Source: Dehalococcoidia bacterium
Lineage (GTDB): Bacteria; Chloroflexota; Dehalococcoidia; SM23-28-2; HRBIN24
NCBI GenBank assembly: GCA_035574155.1
Contig: DATLZD010000075.1
Span: forward strand, 5 to 64,004
DNA: 64,000 nt
Direction of reading: 5' to 3'
Below the pieces are notes generated by a model. That model made no database searches. It was not told the DNA's origin and worked only from the letters and a program-made list of their open reading frames with translations. How positions within the stretch are numbered: the first letter of the stretch is position 1; each line of letters begins with the position of its first letter. This document shows, in pieces, positions 40,024 through 55,806 of this stretch. The position numbers and the translations under genes were made by a program.

Positions 40024-41340
40024 CTAGACGGTCACGCCGTAGAGGCGTCGCGCTTCCCGGCGCAGTTCGCCGCGGAAGTCAGGGTGGGCCACGGCGATGA
40101 GCTCGCCGATGCGCTGACGTATGCTTTTGCCCCGCAGGGTGGCGATGCCGTATTCCGTCACCACGTAGTCGACGAAGGTCCTGGGCACCGTCACCGCCGA
40201 CCCCTCCGGTAGCACGGGCACGATCCTGGTCCGACGCTCCCCCTGCACCAGGTGGCTGGAGGGCACCACCATCACCGAGCGGCCCCCGGGGGTATACTGG
40301 GCCGCCACCATGAAGGCCGTCTGCCCTCCCACCCCGGCCCAGATGCGGGTGCCGATGGTCTCCGAGACCACCTGCCCGGTGAGGTCCACGAAAAGGGCGT
40401 TGTTGACGCACACGTAGTTGCGTTGCTGGACCAGGACCCGCATGTCAGTAACGTAGCCGAACTCGTAAAGCTCGAAGACGGGGTTGCCGTCCATCATGGA
40501 CAGCTCCTCCGGGCTCAGGACCACGCAGCCGCTGGCCACCACCTTGCCTTCGTGCAGGCCCTTGTATTTGCCTGTGGCCACGCCGTTGGCCACCAGCTGG
40601 GGCACGCCCCCGGTGATCACCTCGGTGTGGAAGCCCAGGTCGTGCTTGTCCCCCAAGTAGAGGGCCAGGGCCGAGGAGACGGTGCCGATGCCCACTTGCA
40701 CCGTGTCCCGGTCCCTGACCAGCTCCTGGGCCACCAGCGTGCAGATGACCTCCGTCACGGCCACCTCTTCCTCCGAGCGGGCCGGGATGGGCAGGGGAGG
40801 CGGCTTCTGCCCTTCCACAAAGACGTCGATGTCCGACATATGGACGTAGTTCTTGCCCCCCGTCCTTATGAAGTCCTCGTGCACCTCGGCTATGACCCGC
40901 TTGGCCCGCCGGCACCAGGTGGGGGCATACCATACCCCCGACCCGAAGCTGCAGTAGCCGTTGCGGTCGGGCGGGGACACGGGCACCAGGAAGAAGTCGG
41001 GCTCTTGCACGTAGCCCGGCGGCAGGTCGTCCATCGTCCAGGCCGCCACCGGGATGTAGTCCACCAGGCCGGCATTGATGGGGTCCCGGTCCACCGCCGT
41101 GGCGTAGTTGCTGATGACGTGGAAGCTGGCGCAGTCGGCCTCCTCCCTGATCCAGGGGAAGAAGCCTGTGTAGACGACGGTGACGTCCCGCAGCTCTCGC
41201 CGCCGTTCGTATAACGCCTGACACAGGGCGAAGGGCATGGGGGTGAAGCCCTGCACGGCCACGCTGTCGCCCGAGCGAACGGCCCTCACCGCCTCCTCGG
41301 GCGTGGCGAGCTTGTCGGCCACCATGCTGCGCCAGTCCAC
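40024..41340 (-). CDS. Acetyl-CoA hydrolase/transferase family (4-hydroxybutyrate CoA-transferase-like)
   Basis: VSPPDRNGYCSFG, QVGIG, GFHTE catalytic Glu, GVGGQ, DYVVTEYGIA.LRGK. Confidence 0.9.
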   Translation of the reverse strand: MDWRSMVADKLATPEEAVRAVRSGDSVAVQGFTPMPFALCQALYERRRELRDVTVVYTGFFPWIREEADCASFHVISNYATAVDRDPINAGLVDYIPVAAWTMDDLPPGYVQEPDFFLVPVSPPDRNGYCSFGSGVWYAPTWCRRAKRVIAEVHEDFIRTGGKNYVHMSDIDVFVEGQKPPPLPIPARSEEEVAVTEVICTLVAQELVRDRDTVQVGIGTVSSALALYLGDKHDLGFHTEVITGGVPQLVANGVATGKYKGLHEGKVVASGCVVLSPEELSMMDGNPVFELYEFGYVTDMRVLVQQRNYVCVNNALFVDLTGQVVSETIGTRIWAGVGGQTAFMVAAQYTPGGRSVMVVPSSHLVQGERRTRIVPVLPEGSAVTVPRTFVDYVVTEYGIATLRGKSIRQRIGELIAVAHPDFRGELRREARRLYGVTV

Positions 41341-41451: not shown

Positions 41452-42732
41452 CTACTGCTCCAGCCTGTTCAGGTCGGGCGCCCAGCCGATGATGCCCTCT
41501 CGTGCCAGCCTCTGGATCTCCTCCTGGGGGAGGCCCAGCAGCTCCCTCAGCACGTACTCGTTGTCCTGCCCAAAGAGGGGGGCGGCCTTGCGGTGGTGGG
41601 CGGCGACGCCCTCCAGGCGGAAGCCGATCCAGGGGTACTCGTGCTCGCCCACGATGTCCCTGGGCAGGGAGACGAAGAAGTCCCGCGCCCTAAGGTGGGG
41701 GTCGACCATCAGGTCCTGAGGTCTCAGGACCGCTCCCGCCGTCACACCCGCCTCCTGCAGCAGGTGCATCAGCTCCAGATGGGAGTGGCGCCGGGTCCAT
41801 TCGCCTATGAGGCAGTCCAGCTCATCCTCGTGGGCCTTCCGGCCGGTGGCCGTGGCGAAGCGCGTCTCCAGCGCCCATTCGGGGTTGCCCATGGCCCGCA
41901 CCAGCCGTCCCCACTCCTCGTCGTCGGCCACGGTGATGGCGATCCACGTATCGGGGTCCCTGCAAGGGTAGACGTTATGAGGCGCCATATACGGGTGCCT
42001 GGTGCCCATACGCCCGTGGGTCCGGCCGCAGAGCTGGTATTCCACCACCCGCCGGCCCATCAGGTAGGTGAAGGCCTGGGTCTGCGGTATCTCGATGAAG
42101 GCGCCCTGGCCGGTCCGGTTGCGGTGCCAGAGGGCCATCATAGTGGCGAAGACGGCGGTGTAGCCCAGGCTGGGGTCCGACATGGCGCCCATGGAGAACG
42201 GCGGCTCGTCGTCGCTATAGCCCGTGGCGTCGCTCCCCCCGCTCAGGTGCTCAAAGGTGAAGGCGAAGCCCACGTAGTCGGCAAGCCTGCTGCAGCTGGG
42301 GTAGGCCGGCATGGCCACCATAATGATATCGGGCTTGACGGCGCGCAGGTCTTCGTAGGTGAGCCCGAAGGAGCGCATCACGTGGTTGGCATGGTTCTCT
42401 ACCACCACGTCCGAGACCGACACCAGCTTTAGGAAGATCTCCCGCCCCTCCTCCCGCTTCAGGTCTACCGCCAGCCCCAGCTTGTTCAGGTTCACGGGGT
42501 TGAAGAGGGGACTGGTCTCCCAGCCGGTCACGTCCCCCAGGGGCCGCGAGGCCAGGCGGTAGCCGTCCAGGTAGGTGGGCGACTCCACCTTGATGACCTC
42601 GGCGCCGAAGGCGCCCATGATGGTGGTGGCCAGCGGCCCCGACCAGTAATGGGTGAAGTCCACCACGCGGACGCCCGCCAGGGGCAAGCGCCCGTCGGGC
42701 CTGGGGTCGCCTCGTTGGGCCTCGACGCTCAT
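41452..42732 (-). CDS. Class III CoA-transferase (CaiB/BaiF), catalytic Asp present
   Basis: VDFTHYWSGP, NLNKLG, MGAMSDPSLG, HPYMAPHNVYPC. Confidence 0.9.
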   Translation of the reverse strand: MSVEAQRGDPRPDGRLPLAGVRVVDFTHYWSGPLATTIMGAFGAEVIKVESPTYLDGYRLASRPLGDVTGWETSPLFNPVNLNKLGLAVDLKREEGREIFLKLVSVSDVVVENHANHVMRSFGLTYEDLRAVKPDIIMVAMPAYPSCSRLADYVGFAFTFEHLSGGSDATGYSDDEPPFSMGAMSDPSLGYTAVFATMMALWHRNRTGQGAFIEIPQTQAFTYLMGRRVVEYQLCGRTHGRMGTRHPYMAPHNVYPCRDPDTWIAITVADDEEWGRLVRAMGNPEWALETRFATATGRKAHEDELDCLIGEWTRRHSHLELMHLLQEAGVTAGAVLRPQDLMVDPHLRARDFFVSLPRDIVGEHEYPWIGFRLEGVAAHHRKAAPLFGQDNEYVLRELLGLPQEEIQRLAREGIIGWAPDLNRLEQ

Positions 42733-43949
42733 ATCACTCCTCCCCGACGCAGCAGGGCCAGGGCCTCGCTGTCCAGCCCCAGCTCCCCTCCCAGGACCTC
42801 CTGGTTGTGCTGGCCCAGCTGTGGCGCCGGCGACCGAACGCTCCAGGGATACCCCAGGAACTGGAAGGGCGCCCCGGGGAACCTCTCTATCACGCCCGCC
42901 CGGGGGTGCTCCAGGCGCCTGAAGAGCTGGACCGCCAGTAGCGGCTCGAAGTTGAGGACGTCTTCCGGGGTATGGAGCATGGCCATGGGTATCCGCTGCT
43001 CCAGCCCGATACGGAAGACCTCCTCCCGCGTGTGGTCCACGAACCAGGGGGCGAAGAGTTCGTAGAACTCCTGGCGGCGCCGCCAGCGGACGTCCAGGGC
43101 CAGCAGCTCAGGGTTCTCCAGCAGCTCTTCGTGGCCCGTCAGGCGACACATGGACTGCCAATGCTTGAAGGTCAAAAGGTAGACGCCGATGTAGCCGTCC
43201 TTGCAGCGGAACTCGCCCACGAAGGGCCGTCCCGAGCGTATGGTCCCCGGGATCACCGGCGGCAGCGGCACCGAGGCCAGCTTGGTCTGGAAGGACCATA
43301 TGACGGTGGGCGTCACCAGGCAGGAGGTGACCGTCTCCATGATGGAGACGTCCACCCTGCGACCGGCACCCCGTTGGTCGGCCTCGTAGAGGGCCATCAT
43401 CGTGCCCGCTGCCCCCACCATGCCGGCCACGAAGTAAAAGGCCTCATTGCCGATGTGGAGGGGCGGTCGGGTCGGTTCGCCCAGCATGTAGACATGGCCG
43501 CCCAGGGCCGCCAGCACCAGGTGGGACGCGCGGAACAGGCTGTAGGGGCCGCTCTGCCCAAAGGGGGTGACGGAGGTGATGACCAGCCTGGGGTTTAGGG
43601 CCCACAGCACCTCGGGGCCGAGCCCCATCTCTTCCAGGCTGCCGGGCGGATAGCTCTCCACCAGGACGTGGGCCTTGGCCACCAGCTTGAGCAGCAGCTC
43701 CCGGCCGGTGCGGCTCCCCAGGTTGAGGGTTATGCCCTTCTTGTTGGCATTGACGAACAGATGGGTAGGGCTGGCCTCCATGTCGGGGGCCCCGTTGGGG
43801 AAGGGCCCCCAGTGGCGGCAGATGTCGCCCAGGAAGGGGGGTTCTACCTTTATGACCTCGGCGCCGTAATCGCCCAGGATCCTGGCCGTGAAAGGGCCCG
43901 CCGCGCCGGTGCTTATATCGATGACCCTGATCCCGTCCAGTAGGGCCAT
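42729..43949 (-). CDS. Class III CoA-transferase subunit lacking catalytic Asp
   Basis: GPFTARILGDYGAEVIKVE, NANKKG, TPFGQSGP; Asp position reads GNEAFYFVAG. Confidence 0.88.
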   Translation of the reverse strand: MALLDGIRVIDISTGAAGPFTARILGDYGAEVIKVEPPFLGDICRHWGPFPNGAPDMEASPTHLFVNANKKGITLNLGSRTGRELLLKLVAKAHVLVESYPPGSLEEMGLGPEVLWALNPRLVITSVTPFGQSGPYSLFRASHLVLAALGGHVYMLGEPTRPPLHIGNEAFYFVAGMVGAAGTMMALYEADQRGAGRRVDVSIMETVTSCLVTPTVIWSFQTKLASVPLPPVIPGTIRSGRPFVGEFRCKDGYIGVYLLTFKHWQSMCRLTGHEELLENPELLALDVRWRRRQEFYELFAPWFVDHTREEVFRIGLEQRIPMAMLHTPEDVLNFEPLLAVQLFRRLEHPRAGVIERFPGAPFQFLGYPWSVRSPAPQLGQHNQEVLGGELGLDSEALALLRRGGVI

Positions 43950-44013
43950 GTCCCTCCTCTCCCGCACAGCTACGGCCGTTGGCTCGACCCTAGGCCCGCT
44001 TTGGTCGCTGCAT

Positions 44014-44042
44014 AATGTATCCAGACAACATGAATGTGTCAA
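44014..44042 (-). promoter_or_regulatory. sigma70 promoter of the leftward CoA-transferase operon
   Basis: TTGACA-N17-TACATT; ACAT-GA-ATGT palindrome overlaps the spacer. Confidence 0.7.
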
Positions 44043-44221
44043 CGGCATCGGGGAGAGGCCGTGCTGGGCGCCACAGCAGCCAGCGATGGTGGGGGCCGCG
44101 GTGGCCGCTGGGCGTGGGGCGGGGCCCTTGCGGGGCGCGCGGACGGGAAGGGCCCAGGGCGGCCCCGGGCTGGACCGCCCCCCCATGGCCCAGCCCCTTT
44201 GCGTCGGCCCGCTGCAACGTG

Positions 44222-44251
44222 TTGAACATGTCGTCGCCTTGGTGCTATAAT
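44222..44251 (+). promoter_or_regulatory. sigma70 promoter of the carboxylase operon
   Basis: TTGAAC-N18-TATAAT with extended -10 TG. Confidence 0.7.
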
Positions 44252-44334
44252 CCCGACCAAACCCGGCCGACAGTCCTGCCTATGATGCTGCCCAGGCGGT
44301 GACGCAGCGGGACGGGCTTAAACGAGGTGTGTAG

Positions 44335-46473
44335 ATGGCTCGTTATCTAATCGCCTGTGACGCCGGCGGCACCATGACCGACGTCATCGTCGTCCATGAG
44401 GACGGCCGCTTCGTCATCGGCAAGGCCCCCACCACCCCCTTCGACGAGAGCCAGGGCTTTGCCGAGTCCCTGGAGGACGCCCTCAGTTACTGGGGCATCA
44501 GCCTCGAAAAGGAGGGCCACGAGGTCTGCGAGGCCACCGACTCGGCCATTTACACCGGCACCAGCATGCTCAATGCGGTAATCAACATGTCTGGCCTCAA
44601 GACCGGGCTCATCACCACCCGCGGCTTCGAGGACGTGCTGGTGCAGGGCAGAGGCTCCCAGTCCTTCATCGGCGCCGACTGGCCCGAGATTACCCACATG
44701 CAGTACCGCAAGCACCGGCAGCCGCTGGTGCCCCGTCGACTCACCAGGGGGGTGACGGAACGGATAGACATGTTCGGCAACGTGGTCATCCCCCTCTACG
44801 AACACGAGGTGGAGAGGGCCGTGGAGGAGCTGCTGGACGAGGGCGTCCAGGCCCTGGCCATCGTCTTCCTCCAGTCCTACGTCAACCCGCAGCACGAGCT
44901 GCGGGCCAAGGAGATCGTGGAGGGTGTCCTAAGGCGCCGCGGCGTAGAGATCCCTGTCATCGCCTCCAGCCAGGTGTCCCCGGTGATAAGAGAGGTGTCC
45001 AGGGCCAACGCCACTGTGCTCCAGGCCTTCGCTGCCGAGCCCGCCCGCAAGCAGCTGTTCGGGGTGGAGGCGCGCATCCAGCAGTACGGCCACAAGCGGG
45101 CCCTGCGGACGGTCCTCTCCTACGGCGGCGTCACTAACATCCGCTACGACCGCCTGTTCGAGACCATCGTCTCGGGCCCCGTGGGCGGCGTCATGGGGGC
45201 CTATCACCTGGGCAATGCCCTGGGCATAGAGAACCTGGTCTGCTCCGACATGGGCGGCACCAGCTTTGACGTGGCCTGCATTACCGCCGGCGTGCTGCCC
45301 ATGGACCGGGAGCCCCCCTTCCAGCAGATGTATGTGAACGTGCCCATGATCGACATCCGGTCCATTGGGGCAGGCACCGGCACTTATATCAGGGTTGACC
45401 CCGAGACACGGCGCATCCGCCTGGGGCCCGACAGCGCCGGCGGCTATCCGGGCCCCGTCTTCTACAACATGGGGAACTTGACGCCCACCGTCGGCGACTG
45501 CGACCTCATCCTGGGGATCCTCAATGAGCACAACTATCTGGGCGGCCGCATCAAGGTCTACAAGGACCTGGCCTTCGAGGTGTTCAAGGAGAAGGTGGCC
45601 GACCCTCTGGGCCTGGACGTCTACACGGCGGCCGAGGCCTGCGTCGACCTCATCAACCTGGTGATGAGGGAGCACCTGGTGCGGACGGTCATGTTGGGCT
45701 ACGACCCCAGGGACTACGTGCTGCTGGGCTACGGCGGCGCCGGCCCCATGCACCTGGCCGGCTACGCCGGCGATTACCCCTGGCGGGGGGTGGCCACCGT
45801 GCCCTGGGCTGCCGCCTTCTCGGCCTGGGGCTGCGCCTGCATGGACTACTCCCACCGCCGCCACCGCAGCATATCGGCGGTGGTGCCCTTCGGGGCCGGC
45901 GAGGCCGAGAAGGAGTATGCCGGCCGCATCATCACCTCCACCTGGGAGGCCCTGGAGCAGGAGCTGCTGGAGGAGCTGACCCAGGAGGGCTTCCCCCGGG
46001 ACCGCATCAGCTTCCGGCAGATAGCCTATGTGCGCTACTATGGCCACCTCTTCGACGTGGAGGTGGAGTCGCCCCTGCCCCGCCTGGCCGGTGCCCAGGA
46101 CATGGACAGGCTCCTGGAGCGGTTCGAGCAGCTGTTCACGCGCATGTATACCCTGGCCGGCAAGCCCAGCTATCCCACCTACGCCGTCACCGAGGTGGCG
46201 GTGGTGGCCCAGGTGGACACCCCCAAGCCCGTGGTGCGCCGCTACGACCTGGAAGGCCCTGAGCCGCCTAAGCAGGCCCTCAAGGAGAGGCGGCAGGTGT
46301 TCCAGGGCGGCCGCTGGCAGCCGGCCAACATCTACGAGATGTCGGAGCTGCGGCCAGGCAACGTGATCGAGGGCCTGGCCGTCATCGAGGCGCCCAGCAC
46401 CACCCTGTTCGTGCCCGAGCAGTGGCGGGTGCGCATCGACGAATACGAGATCTACTGGCTGGAACGAAAGTAA
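44335..46473 (+). CDS. acxA: Acetone-carboxylase-family beta subunit (hydantoinase A/oxoprolinase, ATP-binding)
   Basis: DAGGTMTD, GKAPTTP, SGPVGG, DMGGTSFD, SIGAGTG, GPDSAG, PTVGDCD; symbol marks the family only. Confidence 0.85.
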   Translation: MARYLIACDAGGTMTDVIVVHEDGRFVIGKAPTTPFDESQGFAESLEDALSYWGISLEKEGHEVCEATDSAIYTGTSMLNAVINMSGLKTGLITTRGFEDVLVQGRGSQSFIGADWPEITHMQYRKHRQPLVPRRLTRGVTERIDMFGNVVIPLYEHEVERAVEELLDEGVQALAIVFLQSYVNPQHELRAKEIVEGVLRRRGVEIPVIASSQVSPVIREVSRANATVLQAFAAEPARKQLFGVEARIQQYGHKRALRTVLSYGGVTNIRYDRLFETIVSGPVGGVMGAYHLGNALGIENLVCSDMGGTSFDVACITAGVLPMDREPPFQQMYVNVPMIDIRSIGAGTGTYIRVDPETRRIRLGPDSAGGYPGPVFYNMGNLTPTVGDCDLILGILNEHNYLGGRIKVYKDLAFEVFKEKVADPLGLDVYTAAEACVDLINLVMREHLVRTVMLGYDPRDYVLLGYGGAGPMHLAGYAGDYPWRGVATVPWAAAFSAWGCACMDYSHRRHRSISAVVPFGAGEAEKEYAGRIITSTWEALEQELLEELTQEGFPRDRISFRQIAYVRYYGHLFDVEVESPLPRLAGAQDMDRLLERFEQLFTRMYTLAGKPSYPTYAVTEVAVVAQVDTPKPVVRRYDLEGPEPPKQALKERRQVFQGGRWQPANIYEMSELRPGNVIEGLAVIEAPSTTLFVPEQWRVRIDEYEIYWLERK

Positions 46474-46491: not shown

Positions 46492-48696
46492 ATGGTCGTT
46501 GGACGCGCCACCCTAAAGGAACAGGCGGCCCAGTATGACAAGCTCCTGCAGGAGACGGGCTGTCTCTTCGGCCTCACCGAGCTGAAGCGCAAGAAGGAGG
46601 ACCCCGGGACCTACGAGGCCGTGTGGCATATGCTCTTGAACGCCGTCAACACCGGCTGGGCGGTGGGCTGCAAGGTGTCGTCCTCCCCCATCGCCGTCGA
46701 GGGCGGCGATGCTGTCTGGTGCCTACACGTGCCTACGGGGGAGGTGGTGTGCAGCTCGCGGGGTATCACCGCCCACCCGGGGCTGCTATCGATGCTCATC
46801 CGGCGCATGATCGACCACGAGTACGAGGTGGACCCCGGCATCAACCCGGGCGACATCTTCGAGAACAACGACTCCCACTTCGGTGGCATCCACGGGCCCG
46901 ACTTCCAGACGGTGGTGCCCATCTTCTACAACGGGGAGCTGGTGGCCTGGGCCGCCGCCGTCAGCCACGTCATGGACGCCGGCTTCGTCATGCCCGGCTC
47001 CATCGGCTTCCTCAACCCGGACGTGTTCACCGACGGCATCTCCTTCGCCATGGAGAAAGTGGGCGAGGAGGACAGCTACTACCCGTGGTACGAGAAGCGC
47101 ATCCGCACCAGGACTAGGATCCCCGAATGGGTGCTGGGCGACGCCCGCGGGCGGCTGGCGGGCTGCCTGACCATCCGTCAGAAGTTCCTGGAGCTGGTGG
47201 AGAAGTACGGCATCGACTACATACGGGACGTGTTGAAGGAATACGTGGAGGACGGACGACGGTTCTGCCTGTCCCGGGTCAGGACCCAGATGATACCCGG
47301 CGTCATGCGCAAGTCCAACTTCAAGGACTTGGCCATGAAAGGCAAGCGGGTGATCCTCCCCCACCAGAACATCGACGTCCTCTTCAACCTGCCCATGCGG
47401 CTGGAGATCACCGGCGACGGCAAGGTCCGCTTTTCGCTGAAGGGCGCCAGCGGCTGGGTACCCTTCGGCGAGAACCTGACCCCCGAGGCCCTGCGCTCGG
47501 CGGCCATGAACGCCTTCTCCCACATGGTGGGCTTCGAGATGTTCAACTGGGGCATCATGGCCAGCTGGGAGCTGGAGGAGCCGCCGCCGGGCTCGTGGTG
47601 CAACCCCTACCCCCAGAACTACTTCGCCGCCACGGGCGTGGGCTGGGCGCCGGCCGTCATGTGGCTCAGCTCCATGTATGAGGTCTTCGGGCGCCTCTTC
47701 TACAGCCGTGGCTATGTGGAGGAGGTGGCGGCGGGGGCGGCCACCACCATGACGGCCGAGTTCTCGGGCTTCAACCAGTATGGCCTCTATACTGCTGGCC
47801 TCACCCTGGAACAGGCCAGCAATGGAGGCCCGGCCCGCGCCATCGCCGACGGGGAGACCAGCGCCTGGTGCATCTACACACCCAACGCCGACTTCGGCAA
47901 CGCCGAGGTCACAGAGCTCTACTATCCCATCGTCTACCTGGGCAGGAACATCGAGCCCGATTCGGGCGGCTACGGCAAGTACCGCGGCGGCCTGGGCCAC
48001 ACCGCCGTCTGGATGGTCAAGAACACCCCCGGCATCGAGTACCAGTGCGGCTGCGCCGGCCTGCGCAGCAAGATCGTCGGCAACCACGGCATGTTCGGCG
48101 CCTACCCCAGCTGGCCCGACCGTGGCAGCTACGCCATCGACACCAACGTCAGGGAGCTCATCGAGCAGAAGAAGCCCCTGGTGCACGAGCGCGGCGACCC
48201 CGAAGAGCCCGACCTGGCCAAAAACATCAAGGCCCGCATCCTGGAGACCAACGCCATCGCCCCCTTCGTGACCCCGGAGATAATGCACGAGTACGACATC
48301 ATCCTCCACCCCATATCGGGCGCCCAGGCCATCGGCGACCCGTTGGAGCGGGACCCCGAGCTGGTCAGGAACGATCTGAACAACGGCTGGACCAGGGAGT
48401 GGGTGGCCCGGGACATCTACGGCGTGGTGGCCACCTATGATGCCGATGCCAAGGAGTGGGTGGTGGACCTGGAGGCCACCGAGCGCCAGCGACAGGCCAT
48501 CCGCGAACGGCGCCGGGCCAGGGGCATCCCCTTCCGTCAGTGGTGGAAGCAGGAGCGGGAAAAGGTGCAGCGTCGGGAGGGGATGGCCGATGCCGTCAAG
48601 ACCATGTGGGCCACGGCCTGCGACCTCTCGCCCGATTACGGCCGGGACCTGAAGGCCTTCTGGAAGCTGCCCGAGGACTTCAGCTTCCAGGGCTGA
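46492..48696 (+). CDS. acxB: Acetone-carboxylase-family alpha subunit (hydantoinase B), divergent
   Basis: SSPI, AHPG, NNDSHFGGIHGPD, SHVMDAG, YSRGYVEEV.AG, SGGYGKYRGG, GDPLER, FWKLP. Confidence 0.85.
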   Translation: MVVGRATLKEQAAQYDKLLQETGCLFGLTELKRKKEDPGTYEAVWHMLLNAVNTGWAVGCKVSSSPIAVEGGDAVWCLHVPTGEVVCSSRGITAHPGLLSMLIRRMIDHEYEVDPGINPGDIFENNDSHFGGIHGPDFQTVVPIFYNGELVAWAAAVSHVMDAGFVMPGSIGFLNPDVFTDGISFAMEKVGEEDSYYPWYEKRIRTRTRIPEWVLGDARGRLAGCLTIRQKFLELVEKYGIDYIRDVLKEYVEDGRRFCLSRVRTQMIPGVMRKSNFKDLAMKGKRVILPHQNIDVLFNLPMRLEITGDGKVRFSLKGASGWVPFGENLTPEALRSAAMNAFSHMVGFEMFNWGIMASWELEEPPPGSWCNPYPQNYFAATGVGWAPAVMWLSSMYEVFGRLFYSRGYVEEVAAGAATTMTAEFSGFNQYGLYTAGLTLEQASNGGPARAIADGETSAWCIYTPNADFGNAEVTELYYPIVYLGRNIEPDSGGYGKYRGGLGHTAVWMVKNTPGIEYQCGCAGLRSKIVGNHGMFGAYPSWPDRGSYAIDTNVRELIEQKKPLVHERGDPEEPDLAKNIKARILETNAIAPFVTPEIMHEYDIILHPISGAQAIGDPLERDPELVRNDLNNGWTREWVARDIYGVVATYDADAKEWVVDLEATERQRQAIRERRRARGIPFRQWWKQEREKVQRREGMADAVKTMWATACDLSPDYGRDLKAFWKLPEDFSFQG

Positions 48697-48731
48697 GGGG
48701 CGCGACAACATACCGCTGCAGGTGGTGAGCC

Positions 48732-49295
48732 ATGTCCGAGTACGACATCAGCGAGATAGAGAAGCTGGCCGACGGCAAGCTCCCCTGGACCCGCGTCCAG
48801 GAGATCATGCGCCTGCCCAAGGACCCCGACCGCTTCTTCAAATGGCTGCGCATCCTCCAGTCGCGGGTGCCCTGGCCCGACCGCATCCTTCTGCCCCTGA
48901 CCACGGCCCTCTTCATCGTCCAGAAGGAGGACGGCCGCCGCCTGGTCAAGTGCCGCTGCGGCTATGAGTTCGACGACTACCGAATCAACTGGAAGCTCCA
49001 CGCCTTGGTCTACGTCCGGGAGACCGAGGAGCAGATGCGTGAGGTCTACCGGGGCCGTGAGATGCCCGATCCCACTTGGGTGCAGGTCCGCGAATACTAC
49101 TGCCCTGGCTGCGCCACCCAGCTGGAGGTGGAGGCCGTCCCCAGGGGCTGCCCCCCCGATTTCGAGTTCCTGCCGGACATCGACACCTTCTATGCTCAGT
49201 GGCTAGGGCAGCCCCTGGCGGGGCAGCCCTACGAGTTCGAGGACCGGACCCAGCAGCTCATCGACCAGTGGGCCAGAGAGGACTTGGGTAGCTGA
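48732..49295 (+). CDS. acxC: Acetone-carboxylase-family gamma subunit (Zn-binding)
   Basis: KDPDRF, CRCG, NWK, EYYCPGC, EVEAVP.G.P, FLPDIDTFY.QWLG. Confidence 0.9.
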   Translation: MSEYDISEIEKLADGKLPWTRVQEIMRLPKDPDRFFKWLRILQSRVPWPDRILLPLTTALFIVQKEDGRRLVKCRCGYEFDDYRINWKLHALVYVRETEEQMREVYRGREMPDPTWVQVREYYCPGCATQLEVEAVPRGCPPDFEFLPDIDTFYAQWLGQPLAGQPYEFEDRTQQLIDQWAREDLGS

Positions 49296-49318: not shown

Positions 49319-50527
49319 ATGGCGCAGGCCCTCCAGGGCGTTACCGTTGTGGAGCTGGTGGACGGCTTCTGGGCCGGTCTGGGCACCACCTTTATGGCCG
49401 ACTTCGGCGCCCGGGTGGTAAAGGTCACTGCCGGTGCCTCCCCCCTGGACGGCCTCGCGAAGGCCCATCGCGATGTCCCCCCGGAGCACGTGAAGCACCT
49501 CTATCATCTGGTGGGGCGCAACAAGCTGGGCGTCGCCCTAGACCTGTCGGGGCAGGAGGGCCAGGACCTGCTGCGCCGGCTGGCGACGGCTGCCGACGTC
49601 TTCGTCAGCGACTGGCCCCGCCGCGATCTCGAGGCCCTCGCCCTGGACTACGAGTCGTTGCGGGCCAGGAGGGAGGACATCGTCTACGTCACGGCCTCGG
49701 GCTTCGGCCAGAAGGGGCCCGATGCTGACCTCCCGAACCTGGAGGAGCTGGCAGCGGCCCGCATCGGCCTCATGCCCATCCTCCCCCAGCCGGGGAGGCC
49801 GCCGGTGTATCCCGGCCACGGCCAGATCTACGCCTCGGGCCTCCTGCTGCTGGGGGCCAGCATCGCCCTCTGGCACCGCCAGCGGACGGGCGAGGGCCAG
49901 TGGGTGGACGTCTCCCTGTTGGCGGCGGGCATGTACGGCGCGACGCTGGACGTGCAGGCGTATCTGGCCATGCGCAGCGAGCGCTTCCTGCGCCCCATCT
50001 CCCGCTACGATGCCGGCAACCCCATGAGCGGGACCTACTACCTGACCAGCGACGGTCGCTGGCTGACCCTCACCATGCCCGACACGGACCGCTACTGGCC
50101 TCGGCTAGCCCCCCTGGTGGGGCTGGACCCGGCCGACCCCCGCTTCGACACCCACGAAAAGCGGTGCGAGGTGAACCGTCTGGAGCTGATCCGCTTGTTG
50201 GAGGAGGCCTTCCGGCGCGCCCCGTCCGACTACTGGAAGGAGGCCATGGAAGAACACGACCTTTCGGGCGACATCATCGAGGACTACTCATACCCGGCCA
50301 ACGACGAGTTCGCCCGCCTGAACGGCTACGTCCTATCGCTGGACCATCCCCTAATGGGGGATCTGAAGCTGCTGGGCTTCCCCATTTACATGAGCGAGAC
50401 CCCCGCCTCCCTGGACCGGCTGGCGCCGTGTCCCCATCAGCACACGGCCCAGGCCCTGCGTTCCCTGCTGGGGCTGTCCGAGGAGGAGGTGGTGGCCCTG
50501 CAGGAGAAGGGCGTCATCAGGCCCTGA
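49319..50527 (+). CDS. Class III CoA-transferase subunit lacking catalytic Asp
   Basis: MADFGARVVKV, GRNKLG, SGFGQKGP; Asp region reads PGHGQIYASG. Confidence 0.85.
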   Translation: MAQALQGVTVVELVDGFWAGLGTTFMADFGARVVKVTAGASPLDGLAKAHRDVPPEHVKHLYHLVGRNKLGVALDLSGQEGQDLLRRLATAADVFVSDWPRRDLEALALDYESLRARREDIVYVTASGFGQKGPDADLPNLEELAAARIGLMPILPQPGRPPVYPGHGQIYASGLLLLGASIALWHRQRTGEGQWVDVSLLAAGMYGATLDVQAYLAMRSERFLRPISRYDAGNPMSGTYYLTSDGRWLTLTMPDTDRYWPRLAPLVGLDPADPRFDTHEKRCEVNRLELIRLLEEAFRRAPSDYWKEAMEEHDLSGDIIEDYSYPANDEFARLNGYVLSLDHPLMGDLKLLGFPIYMSETPASLDRLAPCPHQHTAQALRSLLGLSEEEVVALQEKGVIRP

Positions 50528-50538
50528 CGGTAGACGAC

Positions 50539-51747
50539 ATGTTGCCTCTCGAAGGCCTGCGCATCGTCGACCTGACGGTATGGTTCCAGGGGCCGATAGC
50601 CACCCGACTGCTGGCCGACTTTGGGGCCGAGGTCATCCACCTGGAGAGGCCCCAGGGCGGCGACCCGGCCCGCGGCGTGAGGACCATCAGGGCCGTCCCT
50701 GTGGGGGACTGGAACCAGTACTTTCTGGTCAATAACCGCAACAAGAAGAGCGTGGCTGTCGACTTGAACCAGGAGGAGGGGCAGGCCATCGTCCATCGCC
50801 TGGTCCAGGAGTCGGACGCCTTCGTCACCAACCTGGCCCCGGAGCACCTGAGGCGCTGGAAGGTGGACTACGAGCACCTGCGGGCCATCAACCCCCGCCT
50901 GGTCTACGGCATGGCCAGCGGCTACGGCCGCTTCACGCCCACCCGTCGCCCCGCCTTCGACCTGACGGTCCAGGCCCTGACGGGAGTCATGGCCCGCCTG
51001 GGCGAGCCAGGCGAGCCTCCCATCTACCTGGGCATGGGCTCGGGCGACGCCATGGGCGGGCTGCTGCTGGCCGGGGGGGTGATGATGGCCCTCCTGGCCC
51101 GCAGCCACTTGGGCCGGGGACAGCTAGTGGAGGTGTCCCTCTACGGCGCCCAGCTCTATCTGGGCGCTCCCACCTTGCAGGCCTACCTGGCCAGCGGCGA
51201 CGACCGCCTACGCCGGCAGCGCTCCCGCCTGGAGCCCGTGAACCCCCTCAACAACGTCTTCCCCAGCTCCGACCGGTGGCTGGTCCTGTGCCTGCCCAAC
51301 GAGGACGGTGCCTGGCACGCCCTGTGCGAGACGCTGGAGCGGCCGGAGCTGGCCGCCGACCAGCGCTTCGCCACTCCCCAGTCCAGGGAGGCGAACTGCC
51401 GCCCGTTGACCGAGGCCCTGGACGACGTCATCAGCTCGCGGCCGGCCGAGCACTGGCTGCGCCGGTGGCGCCAGCGGGGCTTTCCCTGCGCTCCGGTCAA
51501 CACCCTGGCCGACCTGGCTGCCGACCCTCAGGCGTGGGCCAACGACTACCTGATGCGGGCCTACTGCCCGGAGATAGACCAGGAGGTGGACGTCCCCGGC
51601 ATGGCCCTGACCCTCTCCCGCACCCCCGGACAGATCCGGCACCTGGGGCCGGAGCTGGGCCAGGACACGGAGCAGGTGCTGGTAGAGGTCCTGGGCTACT
51701 CCTGGGACGACGTGATCCGATTCAAGGACAAGGGGGTGATCCTATGA
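50539..51747 (+). CDS. Class III CoA-transferase (CaiB/BaiF), catalytic Asp present
   Basis: VDLTVWFQGP, NRNKKS, GMGSGDAMGG, NPLNNVF, PELGQDTE. Confidence 0.9.
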   Translation: MLPLEGLRIVDLTVWFQGPIATRLLADFGAEVIHLERPQGGDPARGVRTIRAVPVGDWNQYFLVNNRNKKSVAVDLNQEEGQAIVHRLVQESDAFVTNLAPEHLRRWKVDYEHLRAINPRLVYGMASGYGRFTPTRRPAFDLTVQALTGVMARLGEPGEPPIYLGMGSGDAMGGLLLAGGVMMALLARSHLGRGQLVEVSLYGAQLYLGAPTLQAYLASGDDRLRRQRSRLEPVNPLNNVFPSSDRWLVLCLPNEDGAWHALCETLERPELAADQRFATPQSREANCRPLTEALDDVISSRPAEHWLRRWRQRGFPCAPVNTLADLAADPQAWANDYLMRAYCPEIDQEVDVPGMALTLSRTPGQIRHLGPELGQDTEQVLVEVLGYSWDDVIRFKDKGVIL

Positions 51748-52187
51748 CCGGAGCGGAAGAGGCGACCCAGGGGACGAAACGGGTCCCCTTCACCCAGGGC
51801 GCCTTCATGGAGACCCCACAAGGCCCACGCCTGATCGGCTCCAGGTGCCCCGCCTGCGGGACCGTCTTCTTCCCTAAGGCGGACGTGTGCCGGGTGCCCA
51901 GCTGCATGAGCACCACCGAGGAGATGCTGCTGGGGCCCCGCGGCAAGCTGTGGAGCTACAGCGTCCAGTATTTCAAGCCCCCTCCTCCCATACGGGTCGA
52001 GGAGCCCTTCCGGCCCTACGCCGTGGGGATGGTGGACATGGACGGGGTCCGGATCATCGGCATGCTGACGGAGGCGGACCTGGACGTCCTACGGCCGGAC
52101 ATGGAGGTTGAACTGGTAATTGACATGTTGTATCGTGACGCGGACGGCAACGAGGTGGTCACCTGGAAGTTCCGGCCTGTGCGTTGA
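51744..52187 (+). CDS. DUF35 Zn-ribbon/OB-fold protein
   Basis: GSRCPACG..FFP...C....C, GKLWSYS, PYAVG; ATGA overlap with upstream gene. Confidence 0.9.
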   Translation: MTGAEEATQGTKRVPFTQGAFMETPQGPRLIGSRCPACGTVFFPKADVCRVPSCMSTTEEMLLGPRGKLWSYSVQYFKPPPPIRVEEPFRPYAVGMVDMDGVRIIGMLTEADLDVLRPDMEVELVIDMLYRDADGNEVVTWKFRPVR

Positions 52188-52198
52188 GGAGGTAGGTC

Positions 52199-53383
52199 AT
52201 GAGAGAGGTAGCAGTGCTCGGGGTCGGTGCCCATCCCTGGGGCAGGTTCGATGCGATCCCCCTGTCCCAGATGTGTCGCGTGGCCATCGAGGCAGCCCTC
52301 AAGGATGCCGGCGTGAGCTGGAGGGAGATCCAGGCCGTCGTCGCCGGCGGCTCCCGCTTCTCGGGCGGCTACGGCTGGGCCCTCAACGGCAACGAGATGG
52401 CGGCGGAGATGGGCCTCAGCGGTATCCCCGTCTACAACCTCACGGCCGCCTGTGCCGCTGGCGGCAGCGCCTTCAACATCGCCTACACGCTGGTGGCCAG
52501 CGGCATGCACGACCTGGTGCTGGTCTTCGGCGGTGAGAAGCCGCCACGGGGCTTCTTCCCCCTCAGCCGGGACGAGGCCGATCCCCTGGACCCTCAGTTC
52601 CTGCAGGTGGTGGGTGCCGGCCTCACCGGCCCCGCTTTCTGGGCCATGCTGGCCAGGAGGCGTATGCATGACTACGGCACCACCGAGGAGCAGCTGGCCA
52701 AGGTGGTGGTCAAGGCCCGCCGCCTGGGCGCCCACAACCCCATAGCTAGGTACCGTCAGGAGATCACCGTCGAGGACGTCCTCAACTCGCCCATGGTGTG
52801 CTATCCCCTGCACCTCTTCGAGATCTGCGCCATCAGCGATGGCGCAGCGGCGGCGGTCCTGGCCTCCGCCGACGAGGCCCGCAAGCGGACCAGCCGCCCC
52901 GTCTGGGTGGCGGGCGCGGCCATCTGCACGGCCGAGCTGGGGGACGGGCTGCCCAGGGGCGTGTCGGCCATAGGTGGCTGCGCTCCCAGGGCCTACCACA
53001 GCGAGGTGGCCAAGGCCGTCCGCCTGGCCCTGGAGCGGGCCGGCATGGAGCCCAAGGACATCGACCTCATCGAGCTGCAGGAGAACATCCCCTACTACGA
53101 GCTGGCCCTGCCGGAGGAGTGGGGCTTCTGGGAGCCGGGCGAGGGCGAGAAGATGCTGGAGAGCGGCGAGACGCTCCCCACCGGCAGGACGCCGGTCAAC
53201 CCCAGCGGCGGCTTCCTGTCCTTCGGCGAGGCGACAACGGCCATGGGGGTGTGGCAGGTGTACGAGGTGGCCCTGCAGCTGCGCGGGGAGGCCGGCGCCC
53301 GGCAGGTGCCGGGGGCCAAGACGGGCCTGGCCCAGACCCTGGGCCTGGGTCCCAACGGCAGCGCCATCGTCCTCAAGAGGTAG
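52199..53383 (+). CDS. SCP2-type thiolase-fold protein with non-canonical active site
   Basis: NLTAACAAG, NPIA, CAISDGAAA, VNPSGG; ELQENI and GEATT replace HDAF and GHP. Confidence 0.85.
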   Translation: MREVAVLGVGAHPWGRFDAIPLSQMCRVAIEAALKDAGVSWREIQAVVAGGSRFSGGYGWALNGNEMAAEMGLSGIPVYNLTAACAAGGSAFNIAYTLVASGMHDLVLVFGGEKPPRGFFPLSRDEADPLDPQFLQVVGAGLTGPAFWAMLARRRMHDYGTTEEQLAKVVVKARRLGAHNPIARYRQEITVEDVLNSPMVCYPLHLFEICAISDGAAAAVLASADEARKRTSRPVWVAGAAICTAELGDGLPRGVSAIGGCAPRAYHSEVAKAVRLALERAGMEPKDIDLIELQENIPYYELALPEEWGFWEPGEGEKMLESGETLPTGRTPVNPSGGFLSFGEATTAMGVWQVYEVALQLRGEAGARQVPGAKTGLAQTLGLGPNGSAIVLKR

Positions 53384-53406: not shown

Positions 53407-54348
53407 ATGAAGTTCGGAGTCGGTCTGCCGGTAGTCCACCTTTACCCCGTGACCGCCAACCAGTGGGAGTATACGGCGCCGCCGTCGGTCGCGACCGAGA
53501 TCGCCCAGAAGGCCGATGAGTTGGGGTTCGACTTCCTCATCATCCCCGAGCACATCGTCATCCCCAACGAGATGCTGGAGACCATGGGTGCCCGCTACCC
53601 GGATGCCCTGGCGGCCATGGCCTTCATCGCCGGGGCCACCAAGAACATCAAGGTCCTGAGCTACATCCTGGTGCTGCCCTACCGGAACCCCATAGTGGCT
53701 GCCAAGACCATAGCCACCATGGACTTCCTGTCCAATGGGCGGGTGCTGGTGGGCACCGCCGTGGGCCACATGCAGCGGGAGTTCGAGATCCTGGGGGTGC
53801 CCTTCCACGAGCGAGGCAAGCTCATGGACGAGTACCTGCTGGCCATGAAGGAGCTGTGGACCCAGGACTCGCCGAGCTTCGAGGGCCGCTACGTCCGCTT
53901 CTCGGATATCCGCTTCGAGCCCAAGCCCGTGCAGAAGCCACACCCGCCCATCTGGCTGGGGGGCAACACCAAGCCTGCCATGCGGCGGGCGGCCAACCTG
54001 GGCGATGGCTGGATACCGTGGCTCATCGGCCCCGAGCAGATGCCCCAGTGCCTGGAGTACATCTTCTCGCAGCCAGGCTTCCAGAGCAGGTTCCCCAACG
54101 GCAAGGGGTTCGACGTGATCGTGCCCCTGGCCCGCTTCCAGGTAGAGGACTACTCCCACCGCGAGCTGGGTCCGACGGTGATGCCCCGCGGCAAGGACGA
54201 GATCGTCGAGGCTATCGGCCAGTGGAAGGAGGTGGGTGTGACGGGGGTGGTCATCAACTTCCCCCGCACCCGCAGCCCCGAGCAGGCGATGGACTGGTTG
54301 GAGTGGTATGCCAGGGAGATAGTCCCGGTCTTTAAGGACGGCTCCTGA
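53407..54348 (+). CDS. LLM-class oxidoreductase, probably F420-dependent (Rv2161c-like)
   Basis: IPEHIV, LVLPYRNP, DFLSNGR, PKPVQKPHPPIWLGG, GDGWIP. Confidence 0.85.
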   Translation: MKFGVGLPVVHLYPVTANQWEYTAPPSVATEIAQKADELGFDFLIIPEHIVIPNEMLETMGARYPDALAAMAFIAGATKNIKVLSYILVLPYRNPIVAAKTIATMDFLSNGRVLVGTAVGHMQREFEILGVPFHERGKLMDEYLLAMKELWTQDSPSFEGRYVRFSDIRFEPKPVQKPHPPIWLGGNTKPAMRRAANLGDGWIPWLIGPEQMPQCLEYIFSQPGFQSRFPNGKGFDVIVPLARFQVEDYSHRELGPTVMPRGKDEIVEAIGQWKEVGVTGVVINFPRTRSPEQAMDWLEWYAREIVPVFKDGS

Positions 54349-54375: not shown

Positions 54376-55806
54376 ATGGCGCTCTGGCACAAGCTCAGGC
54401 TACCGGCGGCGCTGGCGGTCGTTGCCGCGTCGCTCCTCCTGGCCGTTGCCTGTGAGGGAGAGGAGGAGGCCCCTGCCACTCCCACCCCCGGCGCGGGCGG
54501 TCAGCAGCAGGTGCGGCCGGGAGCGGCGGGCATACCCAGCAACCCGCGCCAGGTGCGGGGGCTGGAGGGCATCCTCACGCTGGACGATGGGCTGGCCATG
54601 TTCCGGCAGCGTCCGGCCAGCGAGACGCGCACCGGCGTGACGTCCACCACCATCAAGCTGGGCCGAACAGCGGACATGTCGGGCCCCTTCGCCCCCTACG
54701 AGCCTTTCTGGGGGCGGATGTTGGAGGCCCTCATCAAGAGGATCAACGATGCGGGCGGCATCCACGGCCGACGTATCGAGCTGGTGACAGTGGACGACAA
54801 GTCTGACCCGGCCCTGGCCGTCCAAGTCACCCGCAGACTGGTGGAGCAGGACAACGTCTTCGCCCTGTTCTTCAGCATCGGTGCCCCTTCCCACGCGGCC
54901 GTGCACGACTACCACGTGCAGCGGCGGGTGCCCAACTTCTACTACTTCGACGCCTCTCCCCTGGGGATGGAGCCGGAGACGTCGCCCTATGACTACAACG
55001 GCCAGAACTCGGACCACATGAGCGGTCTGGCCATGGCCGAGGCCCTGTTCCGTATCGACCCCAATGCCCGGCCCATCCTGGTCTATGCTGACTTCCCCGC
55101 CTCCCAGGCCGGCCGCGACGGCATTCGTTATGGCGTCCAGAAGCAGGGCAAGAGCCTGGTGGGCGAGCTGTCCCACGACCTGACCCAACTCGATTTGACG
55201 TCCATCGCCCAGCAGGTCATCCGCTCCGGCGCCAACTGGGTGCTCTATCATGGCTCCATCACCCAGTCCATCTCGCTGGTGAAGGCCCTGCGGGACCTGG
55301 GCAGCAACATCCGGGTCTTCCAGTGGGGCTGGGTCCCTACCGGTGACCCCGGCAGCGATGCCCTGATGGATGGGACCTACCAGGTGACCTTCTTCTGCTC
55401 CCAGTTCTCCTGCCCCGACCGCCAGGTCTTCCAGCGCCTGCAGGCCGTAGCCCAGGAGGAGGGCGTACCTTATAACCCCTTCCTGTCGGTCCAAGCGCTG
55501 ATGGCGGTGGAGCACCTGGTGCGGGCCCTGGAGATGGCCGGTCCTGACCTGACCAGGGAAGGCTTCATCGAGGCCCTCAACAACGGGTTCGATGGCAGCT
55601 GGCAGTGCTCGGCCTGCCTCGCCCCTACCATCATGAACCCTCAGGACCACTGGATTAATGAGACCTACCTCATCACCCAGTGGCAGAACGCCTCCCGCCG
55701 CTTCCAGGTGCTGGGCACCCTGGACTACGAGACCAGCAAGGGCAGGGGCCTGAGGGGCAACCTGCCGGGATTCGATTGCCGCCCTGGCACCTGTCCCTGG
55801 AGGTAG
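54376..55806 (+). CDS. ABC-type solute-binding lipoprotein (type I, LIV-like)
   Basis: Lipobox LAVAC, GVTSTTIKLG, INDAGGIHGR.IEL...DD, LTREGFIEAL. Confidence 0.85.
   Translation: MALWHKLRLPAALAVVAASLLLAVACEGEEEAPATPTPGAGGQQQVRPGAAGIPSNPRQVRGLEGILTLDDGLAMFRQRPASETRTGVTSTTIKLGRTADMSGPFAPYEPFWGRMLEALIKRINDAGGIHGRRIELVTVDDKSDPALAVQVTRRLVEQDNVFALFFSIGAPSHAAVHDYHVQRRVPNFYYFDASPLGMEPETSPYDYNGQNSDHMSGLAMAEALFRIDPNARPILVYADFPASQAGRDGIRYGVQKQGKSLVGELSHDLTQLDLTSIAQQVIRSGANWVLYHGSITQSISLVKALRDLGSNIRVFQWGWVPTGDPGSDALMDGTYQVTFFCSQFSCPDRQVFQRLQAVAQEEGVPYNPFLSVQALMAVEHLVRALEMAGPDLTREGFIEALNNGFDGSWQCSACLAPTIMNPQDHWINETYLITQWQNASRRFQVLGTLDYETSKGRGLRGNLPGFDCRPGTCPWR

Follow-up and report, generated by a model that had tools for sequence, protein, structure and literature searches.

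A probable Acx-type ATP-dependent carboxylase with a rebuilt metal-site shell in uncultured Dehalococcoidia and related loci, and the question of its substrate

Introduction

Does an operon built like that of acetone carboxylase encode an acetone carboxylase, or an enzyme that applies the same chemistry to another ketone? The question is raised by three adjacent genes in a 64,000-nucleotide stretch of DNA from a Dehalococcoidia bacterium (GenBank assembly GCA_035574155.1, contig DATLZD010000075.1, positions 5 to 64,004; hereafter the window), with a high guanine-plus-cytosine content of about 70%. The known ATP-dependent, biotin-free ketone carboxylases are a handful, namely the acetone/butanone enzymes, acetophenone carboxylase and Acr of Rhodococcus. 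Alpha subunits of the acetone carboxylase (Acx) type form dozens of clusters at 50% identity, and the studied enzymes fill just one of them. A preliminary description of the window had proposed that its enzyme shares the chemistry of acetone carboxylase and differs in substrate. The first half of that proposal is well supported by homology, metal ligands, the gamma subunit and the predicted fold; the second half is plausible but not established.

Judged by homology, the window enzyme is very probably an Acx-type three-subunit ATP-dependent carboxylase of (alpha-beta-gamma)2 composition, and its clade is, by phylogeny, separate from the characterised enzymes and itself uncharacterised. We lean slightly towards a substrate that is a ketone different from acetone, or a larger one, because the shell of residues about the metal site has been remodelled throughout the clade and because the conserved partner genes (family III CoA-transferases, a MenB/BadI-like crotonase, a Mo-hydroxylase and CoxG/SRPBCC) exceed the needs of acetoacetate metabolism. 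Such a substrate may be an alicyclic ketone, or a keto-acid that is carboxylated to a dicarboxylate.

A three-subunit enzyme of the acetone carboxylase type

The beta gene (44335-46473, + strand) encodes an AcxA/HydA-like ATP-binding kinase subunit of 712 aa with the Pfam domains Hydant_A_N, Hydantoinase_A and Hydant_A_C. It is followed by the alpha gene (46492-48696, + strand; 734 aa; Hydantoinase_B), which encodes the AcxB/HydB-like subunit with the metal site, and by the gamma gene (48732-49295, + strand; 187 aa; Acetone_carb_G, 135 bits). By open reading frame coordinates the three lie on one strand with gaps of 18 and 35 nt, and the alpha and gamma frames stand where the preliminary description had placed them. 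A scan of the genome found the gamma gene in a single copy. The order beta-alpha-gamma is that of the acetone carboxylases AcxABC of Xanthobacter autotrophicus Py2 and Aromatoleum aromaticum (EC 6.4.1.6; structures 5SVB, 5SVC and 5M45), with which the window enzyme also has in common full-length homology, the alpha fold, the His/Asp/His metal ligands, a switch carboxylate, a Zn-Cys4 gamma subunit and the ASKHA motifs.

Residues 2-731 of alpha align with residues 18-743 of Xanthobacter AcxB (5svb_A/5m45_A) at E 1e-113, and on this alignment the resemblance is one of homology and not of chance. The window chain is without the 16 N-terminal and about 30 C-terminal residues of AcxB. Its beta subunit matches acetone carboxylase beta (5svb_B) over the full length with 574 bits and has intact ASKHA motifs (DAGGTMTD at residue 9, DMGGTSFD at residue 305 and GGAGP at residue 467). 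The gamma subunit matches 5m45_C over the full length (E 4e-45). The CRCG and YYCPGC motifs reported for it earlier are both present in the translation and supply the four zinc cysteines (Cys74, Cys76, Cys124 and Cys127; 48951-49112, + strand), all of which align with XaAC (Xanthobacter acetone carboxylase) gamma Cys residues. An AlphaFold2 (AF2) model of alpha from a 104-sequence alignment reached a predicted local distance difference test score (pLDDT) of 82 and a predicted template modelling score of 0.85; an earlier model from a shallow alignment of 23 sequences (pLDDT 62, pocket region <50) was discarded. In Foldseek the alpha model is closest to XaAC alpha (template modelling score, TM, 0.82-0.85), followed by the acetophenone carboxylase Apc (0.73), N-methylhydantoinase (0.60) and caprolactamase (0.56).

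The same superfamily includes ApcABCDE of Aromatoleum aromaticum (5L9W) and Acr of Rhodococcus aetherivorans (PMC13677872), which also have a gamma-type Zn subunit and for which the same chemistry of a phospho-enol and carboxyphosphate is proposed as for the window enzyme. Unlike these, the window operon is without a second kinase subunit (alpha') and without an epsilon subunit: it has one HydA-like gene and no gene for a protein of ~30 kDa, and the resemblance to Apc/Acr stops at 151 bits and a TM of 0.73. The NCBIfam models of ApcA, ApcC, ApcD and ApcB score 192, 384, 159 and 40 bits against cut-offs of 1250, 1500, 1500 and 250. With Apc models this far under their cut-offs and a fold nearer to Acx than to Apc, the earlier statement that this is not the multi-subunit acetophenone carboxylase holds. 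The hydantoinase, oxoprolinase and caprolactamase enzymes (HydAB) have two subunits, no gamma and a HydB of about 580 aa, whereas the window enzyme has gamma and an alpha of 734 aa; the CapB model reaches 69 bits where its cut-off is 1000.

The metal site of the alpha subunit

Sites were compared between 120 sequences of the window clade and 73 canonical sequences from cultured Alpha- and Gammaproteobacteria that are 71-99% identical to XaAC. The Mn of XaAC is bound by alpha-His150, Asp153 and His175, and Glu89 becomes the fourth ligand upon nucleotide binding (PMC5543143). The three permanent ligands align with His134, Asp137 and His159 of the window alpha (46891-46968, + strand) and are invariant in both clades, in agreement with the ligand retention that the preliminary description had seen. 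The set is kept throughout the HydB/Acx/Apc superfamily, including Apc-like and hydantoinase-like representatives, so its retention indicates a working metal site and not acetone-type chemistry specifically. The position of the switchable ligand Glu89 is taken by Asp73 (46708-46710, + strand); it is Asp in 120/120 members of the window clade and Glu in 73/73 canonical sequences. In XaAC the E89D variant still produces acetoacetate about as fast as the wild type, whereas E89A is inactive (PMC12250083). Since E89D is active, the natural Asp73 is compatible with the carboxylate-switch mechanism.

The Mn site of XaAC is lined by a wall of four tryptophans, Trp401, Trp408, Trp438 and Trp479, which restrict the access of water (PMC10865871). 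All four are 100% invariant in the canonical set, as are Glu85 and Glu89. When the alignment is counted out, the four positions fall exactly within three segments that had been flagged as unlike acetone carboxylase; these segments enclose the metal site, and their differences hold throughout the clade. The first, GVGWAPAVMW (residues 382-391; 47635-47664, + strand), keeps W385 in the place of W401, and W408 aligns with L392, a position that is Met or Leu in the clade. The second, TTMTAEFSG (residues 418-426; 47743-47769, + strand), has W438 deleted, with a gap in 120/120 members. In the third, AWCIYTPNAD (residues 458-467; 47863-47892, + strand), Y462 replaces W479 (Tyr in 99% of the clade) and W459 is new. 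Alignment to Xanthobacter AcxB thus finds three of the four metal-site Trp positions replaced or deleted, and W385 is the sole survivor of the shell in the clade. GVGWAPAVMW, TTMTAEFSG and SAWCIYTPNAD are invariant inside the window clade and absent from every other clade examined. The sequence readings behind the flagged differences were accurate: AHPG, IHGPD, SHVMD, the three segments and FWKLP are all found in the translated alpha, and the canonical counterparts given there (SYSWHF, NTSNWLQGG and AIWNPEGD) are present in Xanthobacter AcxB (5svb_A, 5m45_A) at the aligned places.

Type-II divergence between the two sets peaks at residues 61-80 (the Mn-proximal helix region), 281-300 and 501-540. 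The segment at residues 498-546 is rebuilt relative to canonical AcxB, reading GGLGHTAVWMVKNTPGIEYQCGCAG in the window clade versus GGCGFESLRMVWNAK--DWTMFFMG. It also carries H503, C519, C521 and H532, which are new relative to canonical AcxB and invariant in the clade. A co-varying swap of the latch formed by alpha-Glu85 and beta-Asn578 (V69 and F573 in the window) was considered and rejected, as neither position is constant in the clade. For Apc, a ketone site lined by seven positions of the beta subunit has been proposed (PMC5214803). Four of the seven in this predicted kinase-site pocket are the same as in XaAC; the differences are F329 for Met333, D340 for Ala344 and I341 for Met345, of which F329 and I341 are fixed in the window clade.

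The window alpha ends 8 residues past FWKLP, which confirms the early end noted before, and Xanthobacter AcxB continues 33 residues beyond the aligned end. The same early stop, directly after the equivalent of FWKLP, is found in seven further Acx-type alpha genes outside the canonical group, so the short end is the common state and the canonical tail the special one. At loci L083-L088, which belong to other Acx-type clades, the alpha chains end right after FW-LP-DF, as the window alpha does. In-frame stops in other Dehalococcoidia alpha homologues were considered as selenocysteine codons; this was rejected, for each is the alpha stop followed a few codons on by the gamma start in the same frame.

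A separate clade of uncultured bacteria

By BLASTP the window alpha is 33% identical to Xanthobacter AcxB; among characterised and cultured canonical enzymes, mutual identity is 68-99%. Searching 1.8 billion representative proteins gave 305 at E <= 1e-30. At 50% identity the window clade is a single cluster; its next relatives appear at 40%, and many clusters of ~730-aa proteins lie at 30-36%. A tree built from 102 representatives and XaAC sets an 'Acx-type' superclade of 51 rows (100% support in the Shimodaira-Hasegawa-like approximate likelihood ratio test, SH-aLRT) apart from shorter Apc/Hyd-like sequences. Within it the window sequence sits in a clade of 13 rows (100% SH-aLRT, stem 0.38), and the XaAC group forms a separate, fully supported clade.

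Weidenweber et al. proposed to annotate acetone carboxylases by gene order, position in the tree and subunit lengths (PMC5214803). The window locus has the order acxA-acxB-acxC, and its beta and gamma lengths of 712 and 187 aa agree with the expected values of about 717 and 168 aa. Its alpha of 734 aa is shorter than the expected 776 aa or so, lying ~40 aa below the canonical range (769-780 aa) but above Apc (684) and Hyd (about 580). In the tree it falls outside the validated acetone carboxylase branch.

Among 8,000 candidates scored, 542 were alpha homologues at E <= 1e-30, from uncultured lineages that are often met in soil, in sediment and in the deep ocean. The top 120 show identities of 63-96%, and unlike AcxABC the clade was recovered solely from metagenomes and metagenome-assembled genomes (MAGs), of Chloroflexota, Binatia, Myxococcota, Acidimicrobiia and Gammaproteobacteria. 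Eighty loci from species-representative genomes belong to Myxococcota, Binatia, Dehalococcoidia/Chloroflexota, Acidimicrobiia/Actinomycetes, Steroidobacteraceae, Halieaceae and others, with no cultured strain among them. In a sample of 201 Dehalococcoidia genomes the clade is confined to the genus of the window, and two genomes of the same family are without it; the module is therefore patchy and probably mobile. Fifteen other genomes of this sample hold Acx-type enzymes of different clades, 31-34% identical and present in as many as five copies in one genome, which suggests that ketone-carboxylase-like enzymes have radiated broadly in Dehalococcoidia and have so far gone unstudied there. Genomes with such paralogues, all 31-34% identical to the window alpha, include G152 (five places), G156 and G219.

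Homologues of this kind have come up before. Acx homologues of Dehalococcoidia were earlier annotated as acetone/butanone enzymes (PMC4959651). Deep AcxB branches in Arctic Ocean MAGs are likewise environmental, lie outside the validated clade and were called uncertain in substrate by their authors (PMC13714315), who give no active-site or operon analysis of them. Our literature search found no paper on the active-site signature of the window clade, its CoA-transferase-linked operon or the gamma fusion described below.

Operon context

For the counts of downstream neighbours, 53 related loci were used in which the downstream sequence extends for 6 kb or more. In the window, gamma is followed by two family III CoA-transferase subunits. 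R1 (49319-50527, + strand; Pfam CoA_transf_3; in 34/53 related loci) is without the catalytic Asp and shows a gap at the MTD Asp when aligned with SUGCT. R2 (50539-51747, + strand; in 35/53) has the catalytic Asp within GMGSGDAMGG, which aligns with the MTD Asp of formyl-CoA transferase. Both, which recur across phyla, match the BbsEF structure 9fn0 (R2 142 bits, R1 80 bits). The models nearest to these transferases act on dicarboxylates such as glutarate, mesaconate and benzylsuccinate, a point in favour of a ketone other than acetone. Overlapping R2 by 4 nt is a gene for a DUF35 protein (51744-52187, + strand; 8/53 loci) with a zinc ribbon and an OB fold, a thiolase partner that is BbsA-like (51 bits). 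Next comes an SCP-x/Ltp-type thiolase-fold protein (52199-53383, + strand; PRK06059, 383 bits; 9/53 loci), which also matches the archaeal (Methanothermococcus) acetoacetyl-CoA thiolase model with 221 bits. Where at least 8 kb of downstream sequence is available, a candidate beta-keto-cleaving enzyme lies downstream in 33/44 loci.

This layout, an Asp-less and a catalytic family III subunit followed by DUF35 and a thiolase-fold protein, is that of BbsEF and BbsAB in the benzylsuccinate pathway. By that likeness the DUF35/thiolase-fold pair would cleave a beta-ketoacyl-CoA. The similarity to the Bbs proteins is distant, and the window genes are coupled to a carboxylase and not to a glycyl-radical enzyme. 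AcxABC differs in its surroundings: no AcxR-type activator was seen beside the window genes, which have family III CoA-transferases downstream instead.

Other related loci add further CoA-ester enzymes. A third family III CoA-transferase gene is present in 24/53, and a crotonase in 21/53, of the MenB/BadI type by its scores (242/227 bits versus 134 for generic hydratase models). Upstream of beta are CoxG (SRPBCC) in 23/55 loci, XdhC in 9 and MobA in 8; many loci of Myxococcota, Binatia and Chloroflexota have these genes there. A second operon architecture, found mainly in Acidimicrobiia, has FAD and Mo subunits of the xanthine dehydrogenase family (17 and 13 of the 53 loci), an Amidohydro_2 protein (18 loci) and another thiolase (16 loci). 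At loci L035, L037, L050, L064, L071, L076 and L077 the FAD/molybdopterin subunits, Amidohydro_2 and thiolase stand directly after beta-alpha-gamma.

As part of this second architecture, a fusion protein of ~600 aa in 10 loci joins a gamma domain, DUF35 and a crotonase in one chain, and its gamma domain is 63% identical to the window gamma. Read from the sequence, it is a Rosetta-stone link and gives independent support for the tie between the carboxylase and CoA-ester enzymes; in Acidimicrobiia it suggests that the two work as one assembly. The fusion is found at L037:18854-20659 and in genomes G018, G023, G024, G025, G028, G029, G030 and G033 (Acidimicrobiia/Actinomycetes), with some 6.6 kb between it and the ordinary gamma gene upstream.

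Candidate substrates and rival explanations

The preference for a ketone other than acetone has to be weighed against a rival account, possible though clearly short of even in our estimate, in which the window enzyme is the acetone carboxylase of these uncultured lineages, or an enzyme for acetone/butanone or another short aliphatic ketone. In that case acetone would be carboxylated to acetoacetate, R1/R2 would form acetoacetyl-CoA and DUF35/thiolase would yield two acetyl-CoA; the pocket differences would reflect drift, metal choice or thermal adaptation and not substrate. Gene order fits the published Acx criteria and subunit sizes roughly do so, the thiolase matches an acetoacetyl-CoA thiolase model, and the acetoacetyl-CoA thiolase complex of archaea is formed by a DUF35/thiolase pair of this sort. 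The predicted kinase-site pocket is identical to XaAC at four of seven positions, most genomes hold only one gamma gene, and earlier work had taken Dehalococcoidia homologues for acetone/butanone enzymes. On the other side stand the loss of three of the four canonical-invariant Trp and an alpha that is only 33% identical to XaAC where canonical enzymes share 68-99%. The third CoA-transferase, the crotonase, the Mo-hydroxylase subunits and CoxG would all be superfluous for acetoacetate. No family III CoA-transferase, moreover, is known to act on acetoacetate.

Several observations count against a non-acetone substrate. The metal ligands, being universal in the superfamily, carry no substrate information as far as sequence comparison goes. 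A reading of the lost Trp as a bigger pocket was rejected, because the clade gains W391, F424 and W459 as invariant residues and carries Y462; the aromatics are repositioned, not removed, so pocket size is not inferable and the pocket is possibly no larger. The 126 type-II divergent sites are spread across the entire alpha and not confined to the pocket, and in the 104-sequence AF2 model the pocket loops 441-476 fall below pLDDT 50, as do residues 163-181. Most genomes with the window clade have no other Acx-type enzyme, so this could simply be the acetone carboxylase of those lineages. The CoA-transferase and thiolase/DUF35 set of the window itself follows, by analogy, the logic of acetone catabolism seen in Rhodococcus, where the Apc-like, very divergent Acr was shown in 2026 to be an acetone carboxylase with co-induced CoA-transferases (PMC13677872). 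As Acr uses acetone despite its divergence, divergence does not predict substrate.

It is highly improbable that the enzyme is not a carboxylase at all but an ATP-driven hydrolase or lactamase, as in the hydantoinase/oxoprolinase group, or an enzyme that physiologically runs towards decarboxylation, with a gamma-like subunit. Such an activity would accord with large subunits that resemble N-methylhydantoinase and caprolactamase in fold and ligands, and with a gamma whose role is structural and far from the active sites (PMC5214803). Among characterised members of the superfamily, however, gamma accompanies only carboxylases (PMC5214803; PMC13677872). The subunit lengths and the N- and C-terminal extensions are Acx-like and not Hyd-like, the fold is nearest to XaAC, and the neighbours are CoA-ester enzymes that fit a beta-keto acid, not amidases or amino-acid enzymes.

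Proposed mechanism and module

By extension from Xanthobacter acetone carboxylase, ATP-dependent phosphorylation of the enolised ketone and of bicarbonate would take place on beta. Both phosphorylated intermediates would travel to the alpha metal site (H134/D137/H159), where Asp73 would act as the carboxylate switch in the manner of Glu89 and C-C bond formation would give a beta-keto acid. The heteromeric family III CoA-transferase R1/R2 would then turn the acid into a beta-ketoacyl-CoA, the predicted substrate for cleavage by the DUF35/thiolase pair.

On a non-acetone ketone, the clade could be the hallmark of a ketone-degradation module that has not been described before, needs no oxygen, moves horizontally and occurs in uncultured Chloroflexota, Binatia, Myxococcota and Acidimicrobiia; we place this proposal a little below an even chance. 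The route would run from the Acx-type carboxylase through a BbsEF-like CoA-transferase to thiolase cleavage, or to ring-opening by a BadI-like hydrolase. An alicyclic candidate is the conversion of cyclohexanone by way of 2-oxocyclohexanecarboxylate to pimeloyl-CoA. Candidates among the methyl-keto acids are 5-oxohexanoate, which would give 3-oxopimelate, and levulinate, which would give 3-oxoadipate.

Either outcome would be of consequence. A non-acetone substrate would mean a new, anaerobic-compatible entry of ketones into CoA metabolism, for example for alicyclic or keto-acid products of recalcitrant organic matter, and a new C-C-forming biocatalyst. If the substrate is acetone, acetone carboxylation would be extended to several major uncultured phyla, and the Trp shell and Glu89 would be shown to be dispensable.

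Other features of the window

Nine genes run in one direction from beta to a Peripla_BP_6 gene with intergenic gaps of at most 35 nt. The last two follow the thiolase. An F420-dependent LLM-class oxidoreductase (53407-54348, + strand; TIGR03619, 221 bits against a cut-off of 167) begins after a gap of 23 nt and is rarely conserved beside the carboxylase (4/53 loci). The Peripla_BP_6 solute-binding protein (54376-55806, + strand) closes the run and is not conserved in related loci.

Divergent from the carboxylase promoter region, on the - strand, are a second family III CoA-transferase pair (41452-44186) and an acetyl-CoA hydrolase/transferase (40024-41340) that is butyryl-CoA:acetate-like (208 bits). 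These upstream genes, together with an AidB-like dehydrogenase, were considered as part of the module and rejected, as they are not conserved elsewhere. Ahead of the beta gene is a promoter-like site, TTGAAC-N18-(TG)TATAAT (44222-44251, + strand), which is a consensus match only, at 10/12 positions; six promoter-like sites were found against 0.8 expected in shuffles. A ribosome-binding site, GAGGTG (44324-44329, + strand), precedes the beta gene.

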